Of a stretch of DNA of 64,000 bases, positions 6,551-57,499 are shown piece after piece (within the stretch, counting starts at the first letter, position 1; each line of letters begins with the position of its first letter). The translations under genes were made by a program, and so were the position numbers. The notes under the pieces were generated by a model. The model did no database searches, was not told the origin of the DNA, and saw only the letters and a list, made by a program, of their open reading frames with translations. The stretch is taken from NCBI RefSeq assembly GCF_054482525.1, contig NZ_CM137006.1; one strand, given 5' to 3'.

Positions 6551-8221
6551 TTGCAATTTGACTACATCATTATTGGTGCCGGCTCAGCCGGCAACGTTCT
6601 CGCTACCCGTCTGACTGAAGATCCGAACACAACCGTGCTGCTGCTTGAAGCAGGCGGCCCGGACTATCGCTTTGACTTCCGCACCCAGATGCCCGCCGCG
6701 CTGGCGTTCCCGTTACAGGGTAAACGCTATAACTGGGCCTATGAGACGGAACCGGAACCGTTTATGAACAACCGTCGCATGGAGTGCGGACGCGGTAAGG
6801 GGCTTGGCGGGTCATCACTGATCAACGGCATGTGTTACATCCGTGGTAACGCGCTGGATCTCGATAACTGGGCGCAAGAACCCGGTCTGGAGAACTGGAG
6901 CTACCTCGACTGTCTGCCCTACTATCGCAAGGCCGAGACTCGCGATGTGGGCGAGAACGACTACCACGGTGGCGATGGCCCGGTGAGCGTCACTACCTCC
7001 AAACCCGGCGTCAATCCGCTGTTTGAAGCGATGATTGAAGCGGGCGTGCAGGCGGGCTACCCGCGCACGGACGATCTCAACGGCTATCAGCAGGAAGGTT
7101 TTGGCCCGATGGATCGCACCGTCACGCCGCATGGCCGTCGCGCCAGCACCGCGCGTGGCTATCTCGATCAGGCCAAATCGCGCCCTAACCTGACCATTCG
7201 TACTCACGCCATGACCGATCACATCATTTTTGACGGCAAACGCGCGGTGGGCGTCGAGTGGCTGGAAGGCGACAGCACTATTCCGACCCGCGCGGCGGCG
7301 AATAAAGAAGTGCTGTTATGTGCAGGCGCGATTGCTTCACCGCAGATCCTGCAACGCTCCGGCGTCGGCAACGCTGAACTGCTGGCGGAATTTGATATTC
7401 CGCTGGTGCATGAATTACCTGGCGTCGGCGAAAATCTTCAGGATCACCTGGAGATGTACCTGCAATATGAGTGCAAAGAACCGGTTTCCCTCTACCCTGC
7501 CCTGCAGTGGTGGAATCAGCCGAAAATCGGTGCGGAGTGGCTGTTTGGCGGCACCGGCGTTGGTGCCAGCAACCACTTTGAAGCAGGCGGATTTATTCGC
7601 AGCCGTGAGGAATTTGCGTGGCCGAATATTCAGTACCACTTCCTGCCAGTGGCGATTAACTATAACGGCTCGAACGCAGTGAAAGAGCACGGCTTCCAGT
7701 GCCACGTCGGATCGATGCGCTCGCCAAGCCGTGGGCATGTGCGGATTAAATCCCGCGACCCGCACCAGCATCCGGCAATTCTGTTTAACTACATGTCGCA
7801 CGAGCAGGACTGGCAGGAGTTCCGCGACGCAATTCGCATCACCCGGGAGATCATGCATCAACCGGCGCTGGATCAGTATCGTGGCCGCGAAATCAGCCCC
7901 GGTGTCGAATGCCAGACGGATGAGCAGCTCAATGAGTTCGTGCGTAACCACGCCGAAACCGCCTTCCACCCGTGCGGTACCTGCAAAATGGGTTATGACG
8001 AGATGGCAGTGGTTGACGCCGAAGGCCGCGTACACGGGCTGGAAGGCCTGCGCGTGGTGGATGCGTCAATTATGCCGCAGATTATCACCGGCAATTTGAA
8101 CGCCACGACTATTATGATTGGCGAGAAAATGGCGGATATGATTCGCGGGAAGGATGCGTTGCCGAGGAGCACGGCGGGATATTATGTGGCAAATGGGATG
8201 CCGGTGAGAGCGAAAAAATGA
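6551..8221 (+). CDS. betA: Choline dehydrogenase BetA (GMC oxidoreductase)
   Basis: TTG start preceded by the GGAGG RBS; FAD-binding motif [11 protein letters not shown]; 556 aa. Confidence 0.92.
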
Positions 8222-49103: not shown

Positions 49104-49316
49104 ACGTTAACAACGACCGACTCTTTACTGTGCAAAATTGTGTCAGGTAGTCCCTCTGCGTTCAATTCCAGGGTCTGTACACCCTGCTTTGAGCGAGAAA
49201 GAGGGGACTATCCAGCAATGGAGATCACCCAAAAGAAAAAACCACCTGGCTCCCTCGACAACCTTCATCCAGGCATTTAGCCTCAATCAACATTTTTATA
49301 TCTGTCAGGTTACTTC

Positions 49317-49590
49317 ATGATGAAAACTGATCATTATCGTTGTTTTTGTTGCAATAGTAGAATACGCGTATTTATTCCTCCATCTCTATTAATAACGGCA
49401 ATAAACTGTTCACTTCACTGATATTTAAAATATGTATCCTTTTCAAGCTGTTCAGCGGCGTAAGAAAAAGCATTAATTATGAATTCGACGATTTAACCAT
49501 TTCAGTCTGATTGGTAATCATCTGTGATTAATGCTGGTCTATTGATTACGCCAGCATTAACCGCTTAGGGATGTATTCTTCCTGTTCATA
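49317..49590 (+). repeat. Degenerate second copy of the ykgR-(ykgM-ykgO) locus: frameshifted ykgR paralog fused to the 3' end of an rpmJ2-like gene plus its terminator
   Basis: 49327-49441 matches 30040-30150 (ykgR 3' part and downstream) and 49441-49590 matches 30824-30966 (ykgO 3' end and terminator), about 85-90 percent identity by eye, same orientation. Confidence 0.7.
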
Positions 49591-49793
49591 TAGCCCTCGA
49601 AAAAGAGAGAAAATAAAACTGTGTCCAATATTAATTTACCACTCCAGACCGAAGCATCGGTGGGATTAGCAGGACGACTGGTACAGAAGGATGGTATAGC
49701 GTCATTTGTCGGGCATTCCATTGCCATAATAATGACAATTTTGAATCAATAGACATGCTTCTTGATCATGTCTTAAAAATTAGACCATGAGCC

Positions 49794-50024
49794 TTACGAA
49801 GCATCATTTTTACTGACTGGTATTAACTTTGCTATCATATAAACTCTATTCTTAAAAAACGCGCCCAGAATTTTATATGATTTTCCTTGTTTTGCTGCCT
49901 GTAAAGAAATTTCTTTTTCAGTGCTGTCGATGGTTGAACCGACGGCAGTAATCGTTTTGGCGACGCTACTGAAGGATATTAAAGACAGTGTAACCACAAC
50001 AATTAAAGAATAGATAATATTCAT
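49794..50024 (-). CDS. Small periplasmic DUF1471 (YhcN/BhsA-family) protein
   Basis: Signal peptide MNIIYSLIVVVTLSLISFSSVA and C-terminal ...GKSYKILGAFFKNRVYMIAKLI pattern. Confidence 0.5.
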   Translation of the reverse strand: MNIIYSLIVVVTLSLISFSSVAKTITAVGSTIDSTEKEISLQAAKQGKSYKILGAFFKNRVYMIAKLIPVSKNDAS

Positions 50025-50239
50025 GCTAATTCTCCTGACAATTGAGAGGATGAGTTTTATATACAAAGGCATTAAATATGAGTCATGTTTACTCCCTGTG
50101 AAAATAATCTTACTGTAATTAAACCTTCATCTCCTTCGGAGTGAGCAATGCATAATATAATGCATCTTGCTATTCAAAACAGTGGATATAAATTTTCCTT
50201 CCGACCTATTTAATAAAACGTGAATATAAAAGTTATTCT

Positions 50240-50791
50240 TCAGTTTGCAGATGCAGTAGGTCTGATGGTAATTTCGGTTGTATCAACGCTTTCGGGAGAT
50301 TCAATAATATGCCTTACAGCACGGGCAATATCCGCGGGTTGAAGTGCAACAGAACGGTAGGCGTCTATTGACTTCATGGTTTCCACATGGGTAATGGTTG
50401 AAGCCAGTTCACTTTCTACAACCCCAGGATTTACGCAGGTCACACGGATTTTCGAGCTTTCCTGCCGTAAGCCATCCGAAATAGCCCGTACTGCAAATTT
50501 TGACGCGCAATAGACTGCGCCTGTGGGCACAACAGAAAGGGCACCAATAGAACCAAGATTGATTATCTGACCGGAACCCTGTGCTTCCATCACCGGAAGT
50601 ACAGCGCCAATTCCCCAAAGTACACCTTTGATATTCACGTCAATAGTGAGTTCCCATTCATCTTGTTTTCCTGCTGCAAGCGGTGAAAGCGGCATAACGC
50701 CCGCATTATTGATAAGAACATCAACTCGCCCCCAGCTATCCAGCGCTGCTTGCACGAAATCTGCCATGGACTGTCGGTCTGTGACATCCAA
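50240..50791 (-). pseudogene. 5'-truncated short-chain dehydrogenase/reductase gene
   Basis: Contains NNAG, the catalytic Ser and YxxxK but lacks the N-terminal TGxxxGxG Rossmann segment (about 60 aa missing); frame abuts the integrase fragment. Confidence 0.6.
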
Positions 50792-50794
50792 CTT

Positions 50795-50962
50795 GCATTT
50801 TCAGAAATGGGAGGCTGGGAGTCTATCGAAATGGTTCGTCGATATGCTCACCTCGCGCCTAATCACCTTACCGAACACGCACGGCAAATAGACTCAGTCC
50901 TGAACCCATCGGTCCCAAATTTGTCCCAGTCAAAAAAAAAGGAAGGTACTAATTATGTGTAA
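50795..50962 (+). pseudogene. 3' fragment of a tyrosine recombinase (phage/P4-type integrase) gene
   Basis: Encodes ...[24 protein letters not shown], the integrase C-terminal motif carrying the catalytic Tyr; no upstream integrase body. Confidence 0.6.
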
Positions 50963-51174
50963 CTTATTGATTTAAATGGTGCGATAATAGGAATATAACA
51001 CACCACATATATTCTTTGATAAATATGACTATTTTCTTGTTTCATCTTTATAAATGCCCCCTTTTGTGCCCCCACCTTGTTTTTCATGCGACTCGATGAG
51101 ACTTTCATCGAGTCGTTAATCTCATCAAATTCTTCACGTATCGTGGAAACCTTCGCAGATCTCCATCCCCTCAC
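50953..51174 (-). CDS. Hypothetical small protein coupled to the toxin gene
   Basis: 73-aa ORF whose ATG overlaps the toxin stop (ATGA). Confidence 0.3.
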
Positions 51175-52124: not shown

Positions 52125-52604
52125 TCAAAGCAGACCATGTTCAGCGAACGACAATATCTGCGTACCACCGACGATAAGGTGGTCGAGCACCCGGATCTCC
52201 ACCAGCATCAGTGCATGTAACAGTCGTTGAGTGATAGCCTTGTCGGCCTGGCTTGGAGTCACTTCTCCGGACGGGTGGTTATGGGCAAATATCACCGCCG
52301 CCGCATTAAAGTACAGCGCGCGTTTCACCACCTCGCGAGGATGAACCTCAGTGTGACTGATGGTGCCGGTAAAGAGCGTTTCGTGGGCAAGCAGCTGGTT
52401 CTGGTTATTGAGGTACAACACGACAAACACTTCGCGCTCAAGGGGGCCCATTTTCAGCCTGAGCCAGTCGCGGGCAGCCTGAGTCGAGGTGAATGCCACA
52501 CCCGGTTCTAGCAAGTGCTGGTCAAGCAGAACCAAGGCTCGCTTAATGGTACGCAGTGCTGGTAACGGCAGTTCAGGTGTAAACATAGTCAGTTGTTTCG
52601 CCAT
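52125..52604 (-). CDS. RadC-like JAB-domain protein (YeeS/YkfG/YfjY family)
   Basis: HNHPSGEVTPSQAD JAMM-like motif. Confidence 0.85.
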   Translation of the reverse strand: MAKQLTMFTPELPLPALRTIKRALVLLDQHLLEPGVAFTSTQAARDWLRLKMGPLEREVFVVLYLNNQNQLLAHETLFTGTISHTEVHPREVVKRALYFNAAAVIFAHNHPSGEVTPSQADKAITQRLLHALMLVEIRVLDHLIVGGTQILSFAEHGLL

Positions 52605-52978
52605 AGCAAATATCCTTAATTAAAGGTGGTGAGAATGACACTGGATTCGGCACGACAGGCGTGATGGTCGTATTCGAGTAGGAAGATGGTAATATGATTG
52701 CGGAATGCATGAGGAAACGAAGCCAGCAATGACCCAGTGACTCACACCCAATCACAGTGTTAAAAATAAAAAAATCCCGCAATCCAGCGAGGATTGCATT
52801 GGGATAATATCTATCTGTAATTATTTAGAAAAAATGTTTTTTTTCTGAGGTCTATTATAAATTTTTTTCGTTCAGAAACTTCTCGGATATGATCATCTGC
52901 TGAGTACCAAGAACGGACATTGTACCCAATAGTGAGTTAATCATTGGAACGTTGATCACCCCAATTGAAAATTTTCAC

Positions 52979-53006
52979 AATATCCAATATCCAATATCCA
53001 ATATAT
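52979..53006. repeat. Tandem 7-bp repeat CAATATC x about 4
   Basis: CACAATATCCAATATCCAATATCCAATATATC, about 27 bp left of the IS end. Confidence 0.7.
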
Positions 53007-53032
53007 CGGTGTAGAGGGCTTCTCTCTTAAAC

Positions 53033-54230
53033 TGATCCTACCCGCGTAATGTGGACACGCTCCTAAGCGAGATTCTGGTTTTCAAACTGTTTCGGGCTGA
53101 GGCCGCCATAATCGCTGTGACGCCGCCAGCGATTGTAATCGCACTTAATCCGCCGTCCGCATGATTTCCCGGCTGATAAAGCGTTCTCCGTGGATACACT
53201 CGACTTTTAACGAGTGTAAGAAGCTTTCCGCACAGGCATTATCATAACAGCAACCTTTTGCGCTCATGCTGCCATGCAGATTATGTCGTTTCAGCAGAGC
53301 CTGATAATCCGCTGAGCAGTACTGCCCGCCACGGTCGGTGTGAATTCGCCGCCACAGCGCCATCTGCAGTGCATCACAGGCAAGTTCTGCCGTTATTTGC
53401 GAGGACACCAACTAGCCAATAATAGCACGCGACCACCAGTCTATAACCACGGCAAAGTATAACAAGCTTTCATCGATGCGAAGGTACGTGATGTCACCAG
53501 CCCACTTCTGGTCCGAGCCACTAGATCTGAAGTCCTGCTTCAGCAGATTCTCCGGCACTGGCTGGTCGTGAGCACAGTAGATTAACGGGCTGAACAGACG
53601 TGAGGTTTTTGCCCGCAGGCCCTGACGACGCGAACTGTTGCTATCGTTTTGATGTTGTATTCCGGCGGCTCGTCTGCAAGACGAGCCGCACCATAACGCT
53701 GTTTTGCCTCAACGAATACCTTACAGACAGCTTCATTGAAGACGCACCGGAACTGTTGCCGATGGCTCAGTTGGGGACGACGCAGACACCAGGTATACCA
53801 GCAGCTGTGCGCCACGCACAGCACCCGACACATAGCTTTGATACTGAACTCAACCTGATATTTTTCGATAAAGATATACTTCATTTCAGGCGCTACGCGA
53901 AGTATGTCGCGCCCTTTTGGAGAATAGCCAACTCATTATCCCGCTCAGCCAGTTGACGTTTGAGGCAGGCAATCTCCGCTGCTTGTGCGCTCTCTCTCAG
54001 AGGATATTGTCTGGTGCAGTTGTTTGTAGAGCTGGGAATCGTAAAGGCTGAGTTCACGGGCGGTAGTGGCCACACCGAGACGTTCGGCCAACTTAAGGGC
54101 TTCTTCACGAAATTCAGGCGTGTGTTGTTTGCGTGACTTTTGTTGATTGATGCTGATTTTGTCATGTGAGCTACCTCTGATTGAGAGTTTACTCGCTTAG
54201 TCCCGTGTCCACTATTGGTGGGTAGGATCA
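53033..54230 (-). mobile_element. Degraded IS3-family insertion sequence (IS3-like) with frameshifted orfA/orfB
   Basis: Terminal inverted repeats TGATCCTACCCGCGTAATGTGGAC (left) and TGATCCTACCCACCAATAGTGGAC (right, reverse complement); minus-strand ORF fragments match IS3 InsE (…[23 protein letters not shown]) and InsF (MKYIFIEK..., ...[14 protein letters not shown]...CCYDNA...), split by frameshifts; no target-site duplication. Confidence 0.8.
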
Positions 54231-54579
54231 TTATTGATCAAAGATCAAGATGTGCAAAAATTCCCAAGTAAAGCCTTATCTGAACCTTCCGTTTTGTTAG
54301 CACATCTGACATTATTATTCAGTCAAATCCCTTCAGTTGATTGAGTTCAAAGGCGGTAGCTATGCTGATTTGCATTACTGTAAAACTTTTAAAGCAGAGG
54401 TTTATATAGAATTGCTCTGTTGAATAAATTAGTAGGTTCACATGGATTTTGAGTTCACCAAGCATGACAACTTGCGTTCTTCAAGCGATCCTGAGAAGCC
54501 TATTATATTAGTGTACAAGATGCCTCACGTGGCACCACTGAATTTTACATTAGACTCTATCCATTAAAACGATAAAATT

Positions 54580-56313
54580 ATGTACATAGCAAAAATTAAA
54601 TTTACAAATTTCAAATCATTCAAAGAGATGTCTTTTGAGTGCAATGATAAATTCAACATAATTGTTGGTGAAAATAATATTGGTAAAAGCACATTATTTG
54701 AGGGGGTAAGTTTATGGAAATATGCTTATGACAACCTTATTCAAGAAAAAAACAAAAACAAATTCTACAAAGCTTCAACTAACTACTACATTACCTATTC
54801 TACACTCGATCAAATAAGACTTGTTGACGATATTGATATTTTTAACGACCCAAAGAATAGCTCCGCATCAATATGCATTACAATTAAAGATGAACAAAAT
54901 GAATTTGATTTAGAGATTAGATTTGAAAAGCCAGGGATTAAAAATTCATACTTACGGATATTTAATAGCAATGGTTCTGATAATGACACACAGTTTTCAA
55001 ACTTTGAACGATTCTCAAACTATATAAAAGAAAAGGATTGCACTCTAAAAGATGCCATTTACATTTACCAAACAAGACCAATATCAACTATTTTTAGAGA
55101 TGAGCCATTTTACAATAATGCGCAGATAGAGAAAAAAATAAATATTGGAAAGTCACATGATGTCTTAAGGAATAAAATATTAAAAACCGAAAATACTCAA
55201 GCCACAAGGGTTGCACAAAAATTTGAAAATCTTGAGATTCGCCTACAAAAAGTCCTTGGTGAAAACTATATCTTAAAATTTAAGAATAGAAATCGAATCG
55301 ATGATGAGTATGTTAAAATAACTGCAACAAAGGAAAACGGGAAAGAATTGGAAATATCACTTATGGGTAGTGGTTTTTTGCAAGTCTTAGAGATATTTTC
55401 AACAATTGAGTATATGGAAAAGAATTCAACCGGTATTAACCTCATTCTTATCGATGAGCCTGATTCACATATCCACTCAAATTTACAAGCAAATTTAATT
55501 GACGAACTAAAGCAACAAACAGCATGTCAAATTTTTGTCATAACACATAATGACAGACTAACATCAAAAGCTAATGAAGGTGAGCTTTTTTATCTAAATC
55601 AGATAGTTAAGGATCTTGGTTTATTGTCTCACCTTGAAATATCTGATTATTCAAAAGTTAAAGATGGTCTAGCTAATGTACTAACAGCTATAAATGATGG
55701 AGATGAAACACCCATTGTTATAACTGAAGGAAAAACGGACCAGAAAATTTTAACAACTGCTTGGGAAAAGCTAAACCCAGGAACTCCTATGCCTTTTAAA
55801 ATAATTTCATCCGGCATTCAAATTGAAGAGGAAAAAAGAACTGGGTGCGCAGAGGCAGTTAGAAGATCTTTAGAATACATTTCAACATTAACTGATAGAA
55901 CAATTATCGGTTTATTTGATAATGATCGGGAGGGAAATGAGCAGTTCAAAGGATTAAATCGTTCTATTTTTGAACCTCATGACCTGCAAAATAACTCCCG
56001 AAAACATCAGATAAAAAATATCTATGGGCTTATTCTTCCCGTTCCTGTGCATAGAGAACGTTTTGTACAAAACAATTCTTTAACGCAGCGTTACTTCGTA
56101 ATTGAACAATATTTCCAAGATGAAATATTACTACAGCATAACATGAAAGGTGAGTCAATATTAGGTACTGAGGTATTTTTTGTTAATGACTCAAGAAAGA
56201 ATGAGTTTTCAGAGTCAACCAATGACCTTCCGGTAGAATGCTTTGGGGATTTTAGTATTTTATTCGATAAAATTTCCGATTTATTGGCTAACAATAGACC
56301 AGAAAACACTTGA
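54580..56313 (+). CDS. OLD-family protein: N-terminal ABC-type ATPase fused to a C-terminal TOPRIM nuclease-like domain (P2 Old / Gabija GajA / PARIS-like); candidate anti-phage defense protein
   Basis: 577 aa; Walker A GENNIGKST (aa 30-38), Walker B LILIDEPD (aa 288-295), H-loop ITHND; TOPRIM-like ITEGKTD (E383) and FDNDREG (D447, D449); strongly AT-rich codon usage. Confidence 0.7.
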   Translation: MYIAKIKFTNFKSFKEMSFECNDKFNIIVGENNIGKSTLFEGVSLWKYAYDNLIQEKNKNKFYKASTNYYITYSTLDQIRLVDDIDIFNDPKNSSASICITIKDEQNEFDLEIRFEKPGIKNSYLRIFNSNGSDNDTQFSNFERFSNYIKEKDCTLKDAIYIYQTRPISTIFRDEPFYNNAQIEKKINIGKSHDVLRNKILKTENTQATRVAQKFENLEIRLQKVLGENYILKFKNRNRIDDEYVKITATKENGKELEISLMGSGFLQVLEIFSTIEYMEKNSTGINLILIDEPDSHIHSNLQANLIDELKQQTACQIFVITHNDRLTSKANEGELFYLNQIVKDLGLLSHLEISDYSKVKDGLANVLTAINDGDETPIVITEGKTDQKILTTAWEKLNPGTPMPFKIISSGIQIEEEKRTGCAEAVRRSLEYISTLTDRTIIGLFDNDREGNEQFKGLNRSIFEPHDLQNNSRKHQIKNIYGLILPVPVHRERFVQNNSLTQRYFVIEQYFQDEILLQHNMKGESILGTEVFFVNDSRKNEFSESTNDLPVECFGDFSILFDKISDLLANNRPENT

Positions 56314-57088
56314 TACTGTACTGCATTTTCCATATCGAGCTAAAACGGACCATTCGCTTTTAAAGTGATTACGGCATACGGGACAGATTTTCCTTAAAGC
56401 AAACGTCTCCTTCACGCCCTGAGACATTCGACATTAAGTAAGAACGGGGGTGCGCCTCGAGTGCCAGCAAATATTTTGCTTCGTCGTAGCGGGTTCTGGT
56501 CATCCAGCAGCTGTAAATGATCCTTATCCATTTATACGCCAGAGCCCAAATGGCTGATTGATGCGATTTTCCTTTTCTTCGCAGCTCTTACTAATAAAGT
56601 CTGGCCCAGAATGATGAGTTAATCGTCTTTGCAGCCCATTCCACGAATGTCTGTCGGACGAGCTCCGCACATTGCCAACATCAGTGTACCCAAGATTTCT
56701 GGCCGCTTTGTTCTGTCACCGGAAAAATACCTGCGTAGTTTTGAATTTCTTCAGCGCAGTTTAACTGGTCACGGTTACTTGAAGAAAGAAACTGACCACT
56801 GCGCTCGTCGTTCGGAAGTGCCAGGGCTATCGGTGGATATTAAGGGAAACCTGACAGCCGGAGGTAATCAGGGTTATTAATGCCGTCAGTGTGGGCCCCG
56901 CTACCAGTGAAACACTAATGTATTGATTAAGTTTCATATTCTTCCTTAATGAAAATAAGCATGTTTTCTTTTGCTAAATCAGTCGTCGTTGGCGATGAAA
57001 CCGGCTCACACATCACGCGATTGTTAAATGAAAAAGCCCCTATTGCGTGAGCAACAGGGGCTATATTTATTTTGTGTCTATAGAGGCA

Positions 57089-57499
57089 TCAGTAACCAGT
57101 TTTAACCTTGTACATCAATAGTGTTTTACTGCCCCGGACAATTTTCACATACAGGGCATTATCTTTCGTGCCTCGCACAAAACCGGCCTGCACATCGCCC
57201 TTACAGTCACCACCGTCGTAAGGAATATTGACACCTGTCTGACGCACCAGATCAATAACCCCGAAGCTTAAGTCCTCACAGGCCGGGCCCGGCAGGTCCT
57301 GAATCAGGGCAAATTTATGGTCGTCGCTGACACCGGTCAGTGAGCACATGGAGGTATTGATGTCGTTTCCCTGGCACCAGTACTCCTGACCGGGATTATC
57401 TTTATCCATCAGACTTGCCGGAAGCTGAGCGGCACCGGCACTGAAGGCGGCAAGTGACAGAATGAGGGCGGGTACAGCAGAGGTCATTATTTTCAGCAT
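57089..57499 (-). CDS. Secreted 4-Cys protein of unknown function (island-associated)
   Basis: Signal peptide MLKIMTSAVPALILSLAAFSAGAA; motif W-C-x9-C...C...C. Confidence 0.6.
   Translation of the reverse strand: MLKIMTSAVPALILSLAAFSAGAAQLPASLMDKDNPGQEYWCQGNDINTSMCSLTGVSDDHKFALIQDLPGPACEDLSFGVIDLVRQTGVNIPYDGGDCKGDVQAGFVRGTKDNALYVKIVRGSKTLLMYKVKTGY

Follow-up and report, generated by a model that had tools for sequence, protein, structure and literature searches.

The question raised by this locus is whether a lone, AT-rich gene joining an ATPase to a nuclease domain can act by itself against phage, or is what remains of a larger system. The gene occupies positions 54580..56313 on the + strand of a 64,000-nt stretch of contig NZ_CM137006.1 from assembly GCF_054482525.1 (the whole stretch is called the window below), and encodes a 577-residue protein, WP_000275005.1, which carries the public label 'ATP-dependent nuclease'. 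An initial annotation of the DNA had read the gene as horizontally acquired defense cargo, either a stand-alone nuclease similar to phage P2 Old and the Gabija protein GajA, or a Gabija- or PARIS-type component that had lost its partner. By analogy with characterized systems, the protein is probably an OLD-type anti-phage nuclease that acts as a single chain and needs no partner, which corresponds to Class 1 of the context-based scheme. That it is self-contained is supported by the intact reading frame, the invariant catalytic residues, the lack of a conserved neighbor, and the existence of one-gene cassettes. A role in defense is supported by the affinities of the ATPase in fold and sequence to PtuA, GajA, Eco8 OLD, and AriA, by the sporadic distribution of the gene (1 of 5426 complete Escherichia coli genomes), and by its AT-rich composition in every host.

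An ABC ATPase head and a Toprim domain in one chain

The ORF listing gave a single long open reading frame (ORF) of 577 codons with an ATG start. From the base composition, stops are expected at approximately 7.7% of codons, and the chance of 577 open codons is about 1e-20. The alignment of the family with 34 homologues revealed about 85 invariant columns along the full length of the protein. The improbability of the open frame and the invariant columns over its whole length together indicate a real, intact gene.

The N-terminal portion, residues 1-345 (54580..55614, +), contains a Walker A motif, GENNIGKST (residues 30-38 with K36; 54667-54693), a Q-loop glutamine, Q182, within NNAQI (55123-55125), an ABC signature-like LMGSGFLQ (residues 261-268 with S264/G265; 55360-55383), a Walker B motif, LILIDEPD (residues 288-295 with D292/E293; 55441-55464), and an H-loop, ITHND (residues 321-325 with H323; 55540-55554). 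K36, Q182, S264, G265, Q268, D292, E293, and H323 were invariant in the 34 homologues. The C-terminal Toprim nuclease domain, predicted at residues ~376-570 (55705..56289, +), contains ITEGKTD (residues 381-387 with E383 and D387; 55720-55740), FDNDREG (residues 446-452 with D447, D449, and E451; 55915-55935), TQRYFVIE ending in E509 (56083-56106), and K540 (56197-56199). E383, G384, D387, D447, D449, E509, and K540 were invariant in the same alignment. All of these motifs lie on the + strand. The Walker A, Walker B, H-loop, and first two Toprim motifs were located by script, and each motif named in the initial annotation was found at the residues given there.

The two halves of the protein behaved differently in profile searches. 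Pfam searches with residues 1-345 returned only ABC-type ATPase families (AAA_21 at 3e-16, AAA_15, and SMC_N), and residues 346-577 of the query matched no Pfam family even at E 10. When 23 C-terminal sequences of the family were searched singly against Pfam, none had a significant match, and neither OLD-like Toprim nor DUF4435 was found; the Toprim model PF01751 was reached by 4 of the 23, weakly, at E ~0.02. The matches expected from the first reading were thus obtained for AAA_21 and AAA_15 and not for OLD-like Toprim or DUF4435. NCBIfam matches to MAD3, PtuA, RecF, the Eco8 effector, and Rad50 were all far under the cut-offs. With PADLOC, the whole protein matched models of NsnB, GajA (3e-20), AriAB (4e-20), mad3, AriA, and PtuA, the matches arising from the ATPase part; that to AriAB covered residues 233-453. 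The C-terminal 217 residues alone matched only the models of retron type I-C proteins in which reverse transcriptase (RT) is joined to Toprim, with E values of 2e-6 to 2e-5, and these matches spanned nearly the whole Toprim portion of the models.

AlphaFold models were built from family alignments, with a predicted local distance difference test score of 80 for the full-length protein and 86.6 for the C-terminal domain. The best structural match to the Toprim domain was retron Eco2 (Ec67), with a score of 12.4 over 183 residues at 22% identity, followed by the C-terminal region of a Burkholderia Class 2 OLD protein (10.1), GajA (8.8), the Thermus Class 1 OLD protein (7.5), and AriB (6.8). The whole model matched an SMC head (17.4), retron Ec83 PtuA (16.7), PtuA (15.5), Rad50 (15.3), GajA (14.7), Eco8 OLD (13.9), TsOLD (12.5), and AriA (11.6). 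A family profile searched against PDB chains gave a similar picture for sequence, with Ec83 PtuA (3e-11) and PtuA (3e-10) on top, AriA at 4e-4, and TsOLD at 0.15. By hhalign, P2 Old was recovered with a probability of 52% (E 1.4e-4), only the stretch from Walker B to the first Toprim motif being aligned, and for IbfA of plasmid R64 the alignment was confined to 88 columns (E 6e-6) in the region of the ABC signature and Walker B. A BLASTP comparison of IbfA with the protein yielded nothing significant.

As judged from sequence and predicted fold, the N-terminal domain is an ABC ATPase head of the SMC/Rad50/PtuA kind that has every catalytic element, and the C-terminal domain is an OLD-type Toprim with a complete predicted two-metal site (E383, D387, D447, D449, and E509, plus K540). 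The motifs, the Pfam AAA families, and the modeled folds agree on the fusion of ATPase and Toprim first proposed for this gene. The proposed match to P2 Old and GajA held for architecture and fold, the relationship in sequence being remote, and the structural comparison recovered an OLD-type Toprim fold, with GajA, TsOLD, and AriA/AriB all matched, although the nearest Toprim was that of Eco2 rather than of an OLD protein. The models and alignments place the predicted Toprim nearest to retron Eco2 and the predicted ATPase nearest to PtuA, SMC, and Rad50.

The same Toprim subtype was found in 1082 representatives at E <= 1e-3. It is also fused to other PtuA-like or AriA-like ATPases and to other N-terminal domains, and occurs in short proteins as well; such varied partners are the pattern of a modular defense effector. 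Among these representatives, the subtype is joined to N-terminal regions lacking a PADLOC match in P0123 (608 residues) and P0152 (931 residues), to one with similarity to PDC-S60, a candidate system, in P0189 (958 residues), and to short N-termini in P0128/P0131 (344-381 residues); it is also present in P0201 (995 residues). These proteins may be further uncharacterized effector fusions.

A gene without a conserved partner

Homologues are widespread, and a search for them returned 500 matches at E <= 1e-5. Among the matches listed, full-length members were 555-577 residues long with 46-86% identity, and came from Gammaproteobacteria (Aeromonas, Vibrio, Acinetobacter, Pseudoalteromonas, and Halomonadaceae), from Synechococcus and other cyanobacteria, and from the Bacteroidota Tenacibaculum, Riemerella, and Polaribacter. 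Public labels on family members read 'ATP-dependent nuclease' or 'ATP-dependent endonuclease of OLD family'. The single carrier among the 5426 complete E. coli genomes was found by megablast with window positions 54200-56700. A tblastn search of 50,697 phage records revealed no full-length homologue, and the sole plasmid carrier found by tblastn was an 856-kb replicon of Pseudoalteromonas. The ORF was intact across hundreds of E. coli contigs (the P0001 and P0295 clusters). Many Klebsiella michiganensis records in the P0001 cluster hold shortened versions of 181-368 residues, which are either contig-end artifacts or decaying copies.

The gene has a G+C content of 25-36% in every host examined (the window and loci L002, L005, L007, L008, L009, L011, and L015), and the flanking DNA is far higher, at 63.5% in Aeromonas and 53% in Synechococcus. 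In the window the gene is 31.5% G+C, and 25.8% at third codon positions, compared to 48.7% for the window as a whole and 50-55% for the adjacent genes, in keeping with the contrast to its flanks first noted by eye. The low G+C content everywhere reflects either repeated recent transfers from AT-rich donors or selection for low G+C. The distribution is that of accessory, mobile DNA, and the gene is autonomous.

We examined the surroundings of the gene at eleven loci, from Aeromonas, Acinetobacter, Tenacibaculum, Synechococcus, a metagenome contig, Vibrio cholerae, Vibrio vulnificus, Vibrio parahaemolyticus, Pseudoalteromonas, E. coli, and a Klebsiella-like genome. The eleven had no neighbor in common, nor did a gene for a helicase, a reverse transcriptase, an HNH protein, or a separate Toprim recur among them. 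The homologue lies between an acetyltransferase gene and thiH in Aeromonas hydrophila, adjoins an FMN reductase gene and ileS in Acinetobacter, has a solute symporter gene on one side and thioredoxin genes on the other in Tenacibaculum, and is inside an island with a resolvase in Synechococcus.

In four of these contexts the gene is an integron cassette. Within the V. cholerae superintegron, whose integrase adjoins thrS-infC-rpmI-rplT, two V. cholerae repeats of 126 nt (L007 5836-5961 and 8218-8343) flank the gene. It is bounded in V. parahaemolyticus by attC sites whose ends are at L022 3976 and 5822 (cassette L022 3850-5822), and is flanked in Pseudoalteromonas by attC sites at L011 5891-5978 and ~7700-7765. 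The V. vulnificus copy (L023 3950-5840) is followed by an attC site, and its cassette leader is identical to that in V. cholerae. At 1.8-2.4 kb, the homologue cassettes are unusually large. The homologues in three Vibrio species and Pseudoalteromonas are one-gene integron cassettes, and a gene repeatedly mobilized alone in this way is a self-contained unit. Of the two possibilities left by the initial annotation, the stand-alone nuclease therefore survives, and the loss of a partner is largely refuted by the cassettes and by the eleven contexts together. Hairpins resembling attC next to the Synechococcus and metagenome homologues were suggestive but unconvincing, and these two were left out of the cassette count. 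The cassette following the gene in V. vulnificus (L023 5865-7503) encodes a PRTase-CE protein and then a NADAR-domain protein, a two-gene cassette with the appearance of a further conflict system.

The window itself offered no partner either, as had been supposed. Between 52.6 and 57.1 kb, no ORF other than the gene exceeds 118 codons, and those present overlap remnants of insertion sequences (IS); neither the window ORFs nor the public annotation revealed GajB or any other helicase, a reverse transcriptase, or a separate Toprim gene nearby. Small ORFs upstream of the gene were considered as a hidden partner and rejected, as those in E. coli (41 residues), V. cholerae (43 residues), and Tenacibaculum (53 residues) are unrelated sequences, and the V. 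cholerae ORF falls in repeat DNA. A noncoding RNA partner such as a retron msr/msd or a ToxI-like repeat was rejected as well, since 52-58 kb gave no Rfam match at E <= 0.1 and a search for ToxI-like repeats gave no meaningful tandem repeat.

Relation to known systems and proposed function

Class 1 OLD proteins in the context-based scheme join ATPase and Toprim in a single gene (PMC10568477), and are 500-600 residues long (PMC12392090). The present gene has the corresponding features, being a single gene of 577 codons with no adjacent helicase, RT or noncoding RNA, or Toprim partner. By its predicted architecture and its context, the protein is a Class 1 (stand-alone) OLD-like nuclease. It resembles the members of that class, P2 Old, TsOLD, Vc OLD, and YbjD/OldB, in the N-terminal ABC ATPase and C-terminal Toprim with its E...DxD motifs, in length, in standing alone, and in being carried on mobile DNA. 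It differs from them in the lack of an OLD-like Toprim Pfam match and in an ATPase nearer to PtuA, SMC, and Rad50. P2 Old is phage-borne, unlike this family, which had no full-length homologue in the phage collection, and membership of the protein in the P2 Old family was rejected because only the generic ATPase core aligns. The published Vc OLD residues K48, K58, D313, and D468/D470 map poorly onto the family in a comparison made by residue number alone, and Vc OLD (HAS2513945.1) was absent from the Vibrio clusters whose members were inspected. With Vc OLD compared in that way only, the alignments indicate that the family is distinct at family level from the characterized OLD proteins.

Other systems share one half of the protein or its general plan. 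The Toprim is like that of retron Eco2 (Ec67, type I-C), but the window has no RT ORF or domain, msr/msd RNA, or retron nearby, which separates the gene from retron OLD proteins (Class 3) as well as from type I-C retrons; Eco2 is regulated via its multicopy single-stranded DNA (msDNA), whereas regulation here would have to come from the fused ABC ATPase. The ATPase is like PtuA of Septu and of type I-A retrons (Ec78/Ec83), but PtuA pairs with a separate HNH nuclease, PtuB, and here the Toprim is fused and no HNH gene is nearby. PARIS, in which AriA and AriB are separate or fused as AriAB (Class 4 OLD), likewise has an ABC ATPase sensor with a Toprim effector, but AriB is a DUF4435-type Toprim, and no DUF4435 match was obtained. 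Gabija GajA (Class 2 OLD) acts with the GajB helicase, which is absent from the window and from every homologous locus, and the PADLOC match to GajA reflects ATPase motifs only. IbfA/HEC-04 of the IncI1 plasmid R64 is also a single-gene ABC ATPase with Toprim, and its interference with phage has been demonstrated. The Toprim domains of the two proteins are not detectably related, however, and IbfA is plasmid-borne, whereas the present family is almost absent from plasmids. Membership in an IbfA/HEC-04 family was rejected, as only the ATPase core aligns and homology does not extend over the full length. The protein is a new uncharacterized member or clade of the known OLD-type nucleases, and not a new kind of system.

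Characterized relatives provide the basis for a proposed mechanism. P2 Old is an autoinhibited tetramer whose ABC ATPase senses DNA structures and whose Toprim cleaves tRNA-Thr in its anticodon stem (PMC12445682; bioRxiv 10.64898/2026.07.10.737580). AriB of PARIS is a tRNA-Lys nuclease (PMC11464382, PMC12409363), the Eco2 Toprim is an RNase that becomes toxic once freed from its regulator (PMC12405507), and DNA is nicked by GajA (PMC8136825) and by Vc OLD (PMC12392090). Precedents for stand-alone ATPase-Toprim defense include YbjD (PMC13261556) and IbfA/HEC-04 (PMC12111858). By analogy to P2 Old, PARIS, Gabija, Vc OLD, and retron Eco2, the protein would form an autoinhibited homo-oligomer in which the ATPase would serve as sensor and switch for a phage protein or for an aberrant or replicating DNA structure. 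Binding and hydrolysis of ATP would then free the Toprim domain, which would cut nucleic acid and arrest the infected cell in abortive infection. We lean slightly toward RNA or tRNA as the substrate, because the Toprim is nearest to the Eco2 RNase domain and because P2 Old and AriB are tRNases; DNA nicking is a less likely but still plausible activity.

A more specific proposal, which we put forward tentatively, is that the family is a distinct unrecognized clade spread by cassettes, in which a PtuA/SMC-like ABC sensor directly gates a Toprim RNase of the retron Eco2 type. The ATPase would have taken over the regulatory role of the retron msDNA, killing would occur by cleavage of tRNA or other RNA, and the gene would have spread mainly as a single-gene integron cassette with occasional escape into enterobacterial islands. 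If this is true, the gene would be among the largest defense cassettes in chromosomal integrons.

Several observations weigh against assigning the protein to anti-phage defense. The neighbors in Aeromonas, Acinetobacter, and Tenacibaculum are housekeeping genes and not defense islands, homology to the characterized OLD proteins is remote (the 52% probability for P2 Old and the E value of 0.15 for TsOLD), and no Pfam, NCBIfam, or PADLOC model names the whole protein as any system. Experiments on the family were not found in the papers searched, including under WP_000275005.1 and in the main text of an integron-defense preprint. Promoter-like sites are no commoner at the locus than in shuffled sequence and the gene has a weak Shine-Dalgarno sequence, making expression in E. 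coli uncertain; H-NS, moreover, typically targets DNA of such composition (31% G+C). The Toprim domain of YbjD is dispensable for its phenotype (PMC13261556), and a model in which the ATPase senses and the Toprim kills is thus not universal. The same housekeeping neighbors, together with the best structural matches of the ATPase to SMC, Rad50, and RecF heads, would suit a protein of DNA repair or chromosome maintenance, or a selfish or competition nuclease directed at plasmids and mobile DNA. Such roles have been raised for chromosomal IbfA homologues (PMC12111858), and the archaeal OLD-family ATPase Cran1 is reported to act in the cell cycle and not in defense (PMC12796447). We consider a function of this kind unlikely in view of the patchy, strain-specific distribution, travel in integron cassettes and a mobile island, and foreign composition in every host. 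The model, furthermore, lacks the coiled-coil arm or partner subunit typical of SMC/Rad50, and among proteins of solved structure the closest in sequence are the defense ATPases PtuA and Ec83.

It is very improbable that the gene is an orphaned component of a two-gene system, whether GajA without GajB or a PARIS/AbiL-type AriA-AriB whose partner was lost or fused, and non-functional alone. The GajA, AriAB, and AriA models of PADLOC do match the protein, and the IS debris on either side could have removed a neighbor, but nearly all of these matches trace to the ABC ATPase, a generic region, the C-terminus matches the RT-Toprim_I-C models only, and neither DUF4435 nor OLD-Toprim was matched in Pfam. 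No UvrD-like or DUF4435 gene stands beside the gene at any of the eleven loci, four of which are one-gene cassettes, and the protein is conserved from end to end across three phyla, its catalytic residues being invariant. We also give little credence to an intact but silent passenger, a defense nuclease by structure that is either not expressed in E. coli or not adapted to it and so would contribute nothing there, whether for want of a promoter, through silencing by H-NS, or because of the altered C-terminal tail. A cassette origin implies that the gene has no promoter of its own, which fits the chance level of promoter-like sites and the 31.5% G+C, and the last 30 nt and the protein tail differ from the nearest homologue. 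The ORF has nonetheless remained intact in hundreds of E. coli contigs and in the Klebsiella-like genome, where the island around it shows 94.8% identity but the gene itself has just 13 changes in 1734 nt, and C-terminal tails vary freely in the family. Vc OLD, in addition, is poorly expressed at its native locus and still contributes to defense (PMC12392090). A self-sufficient anti-phage nuclease remains our preferred reading.

The island and the probable route into E. coli

The gene is embedded in foreign AT-rich DNA within an integrative island with IS debris on both sides, as the initial annotation had described. To the left is an IS3-family element (53033..54230, -), identified by public annotation and repeat search, whose transposase is frameshifted with an internal stop and whose 39-nt terminal inverted repeats (53033-53071 and 54192-54230) are imperfect and 79% complementary. 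The AT-rich foreign DNA starts one base past its right end, with 319 nt of non-coding DNA at 37-40% G+C (54231..54549) seen only in this island lineage, followed by a 30-nt leader (54550..54579, +) common to the nearest non-E. coli homologue. To the right of the gene the DNA is non-coding or degraded, and includes the C-terminal part of an IS110-family transposase with internal stops (56453..56776, -; NCBIfam transpos_IS110, E 4e-11). A consensus search at the locus revealed no terminator.

Window positions 54200-56700 are identical to the chromosome of E. coli SCU-102 (NZ_CP051753.1), which carries WP_000275005.1, and every E. coli copy is in one and the same island context. The Klebsiella-like metagenome-assembled genome (L026 2600-13734) has the same module at another chromosomal site, by rpoD and mug, where it keeps the gene and the IS scars and is followed by an McrBC gene. 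The 94.8% identity of this module extends over 10.1 kb, and the 13 differences in the gene (7 synonymous and 6 non-synonymous) leave it 99.25% identical. In the gene-free islands of E. coli MS 115-1 (L017) and NN5 (L018), which were compared over the equivalent of window positions 52600-57090, a DUF905 gene and an antirestriction gene of the YfjX/YafX type are found between a gene for a 136-residue hypothetical protein and the RadC/JAB gene. The presence of these backbone genes at the equivalent spot indicates that the ATPase-Toprim segment replaced them, and that the place is not the dedicated variable slot for cargo it had been taken for. The antirestriction gene of MS 115-1 is also interrupted by an IS3, from which it appears that this point of the backbone attracts IS insertions. 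The island had been described as CP4-57-type, which is correct for its gene content; it adjoins pao/ykg, which we take to be the CP4-6 neighborhood of K-12 and not that of CP4-57.

Comparison with the nearest relative outside E. coli (86% amino acid and 82% nucleotide identity) suggests how the gene came to be there. The two sequences are homologous only over 54550-56283. The left boundary falls exactly at TTAGAC, opposite which the relative has TTAGGC, an R' core of attC; on the right, homology ends 30 nt short of the stop codon of the E. coli copy. The 3' end of the gene (56284..56313, +) is divergent, and the E. coli protein therefore has a different tail, 7 residues longer and ending LLANNRPENT; the original stop codon and the downstream attC have been lost. 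Pattern and fold searches found no attC site in the window, only the degenerate TTAGAC at the homology boundary. On the strength of this one boundary and the four cassette contexts, position 54550 is probably the remnant of the 5' end of an integron cassette, and the E. coli copy a decayed cassette. The cassette copy would have become established in a CP4-6/CP4-57-type island, with IS remnants on either side, replacing the DUF905 and antirestriction genes, and the island with the gene would then have spread within E. coli and to the Klebsiella-like genome.

The far end of this island family holds changing defense-like cargo. A stand-alone TOPRIM-domain protein is encoded there in MS 115-1 (L017 11497-12207), a phosphorothioate-dependent restriction enzyme and a type I restriction subunit in NN5 (L018 190-1062; 15505 onward), and a RecQ-family helicase in SCU-102 (L001 24555 onward, beyond the window). 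The island edge within the window (49300-50970) is a patchwork with a partial ykgR, a full copy of which is ~20 kb away, a 92-residue AT-rich hypothetical ORF (49794-50072), a truncated short-chain dehydrogenase/reductase gene (50240-50791), and a C-terminal integrase fragment (~50750-50962).

Class 1 OLD nucleases are rare, having been reported in ~0.45% of genomes. To our knowledge only three, P2 Old, Vc OLD, and YbjD, have been tested, and these differ, the first being a tRNase, the second a DNA nickase, and the third a protein whose Toprim is dispensable. Annotation pipelines already label the present family as ATP-dependent (OLD-type) nucleases; what makes it interesting is the combination of an Eco2-type Toprim with a PtuA-like ATPase, the cassette lifestyle, and a native E. 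coli copy that experiments could use. The gene is a natural E. coli representative of a divergent, well-conserved clade, whose predicted nuclease domain links OLD proteins to the effector of retron Eco2 and whose ATPase links them to PtuA of Septu. It would serve as a compact test case for the control of a Toprim effector by one ABC sensor without a partner, and bears on whether the target of a Toprim, RNA or DNA, can be predicted from its subtype. Its recurrence as a one-gene cassette supports the idea that chromosomal integrons stock defense genes, and its probable passage from a cassette, by way of a fragment flanked by IS, into an enterobacterial island illustrates a route by which such genes may enter gut bacteria.

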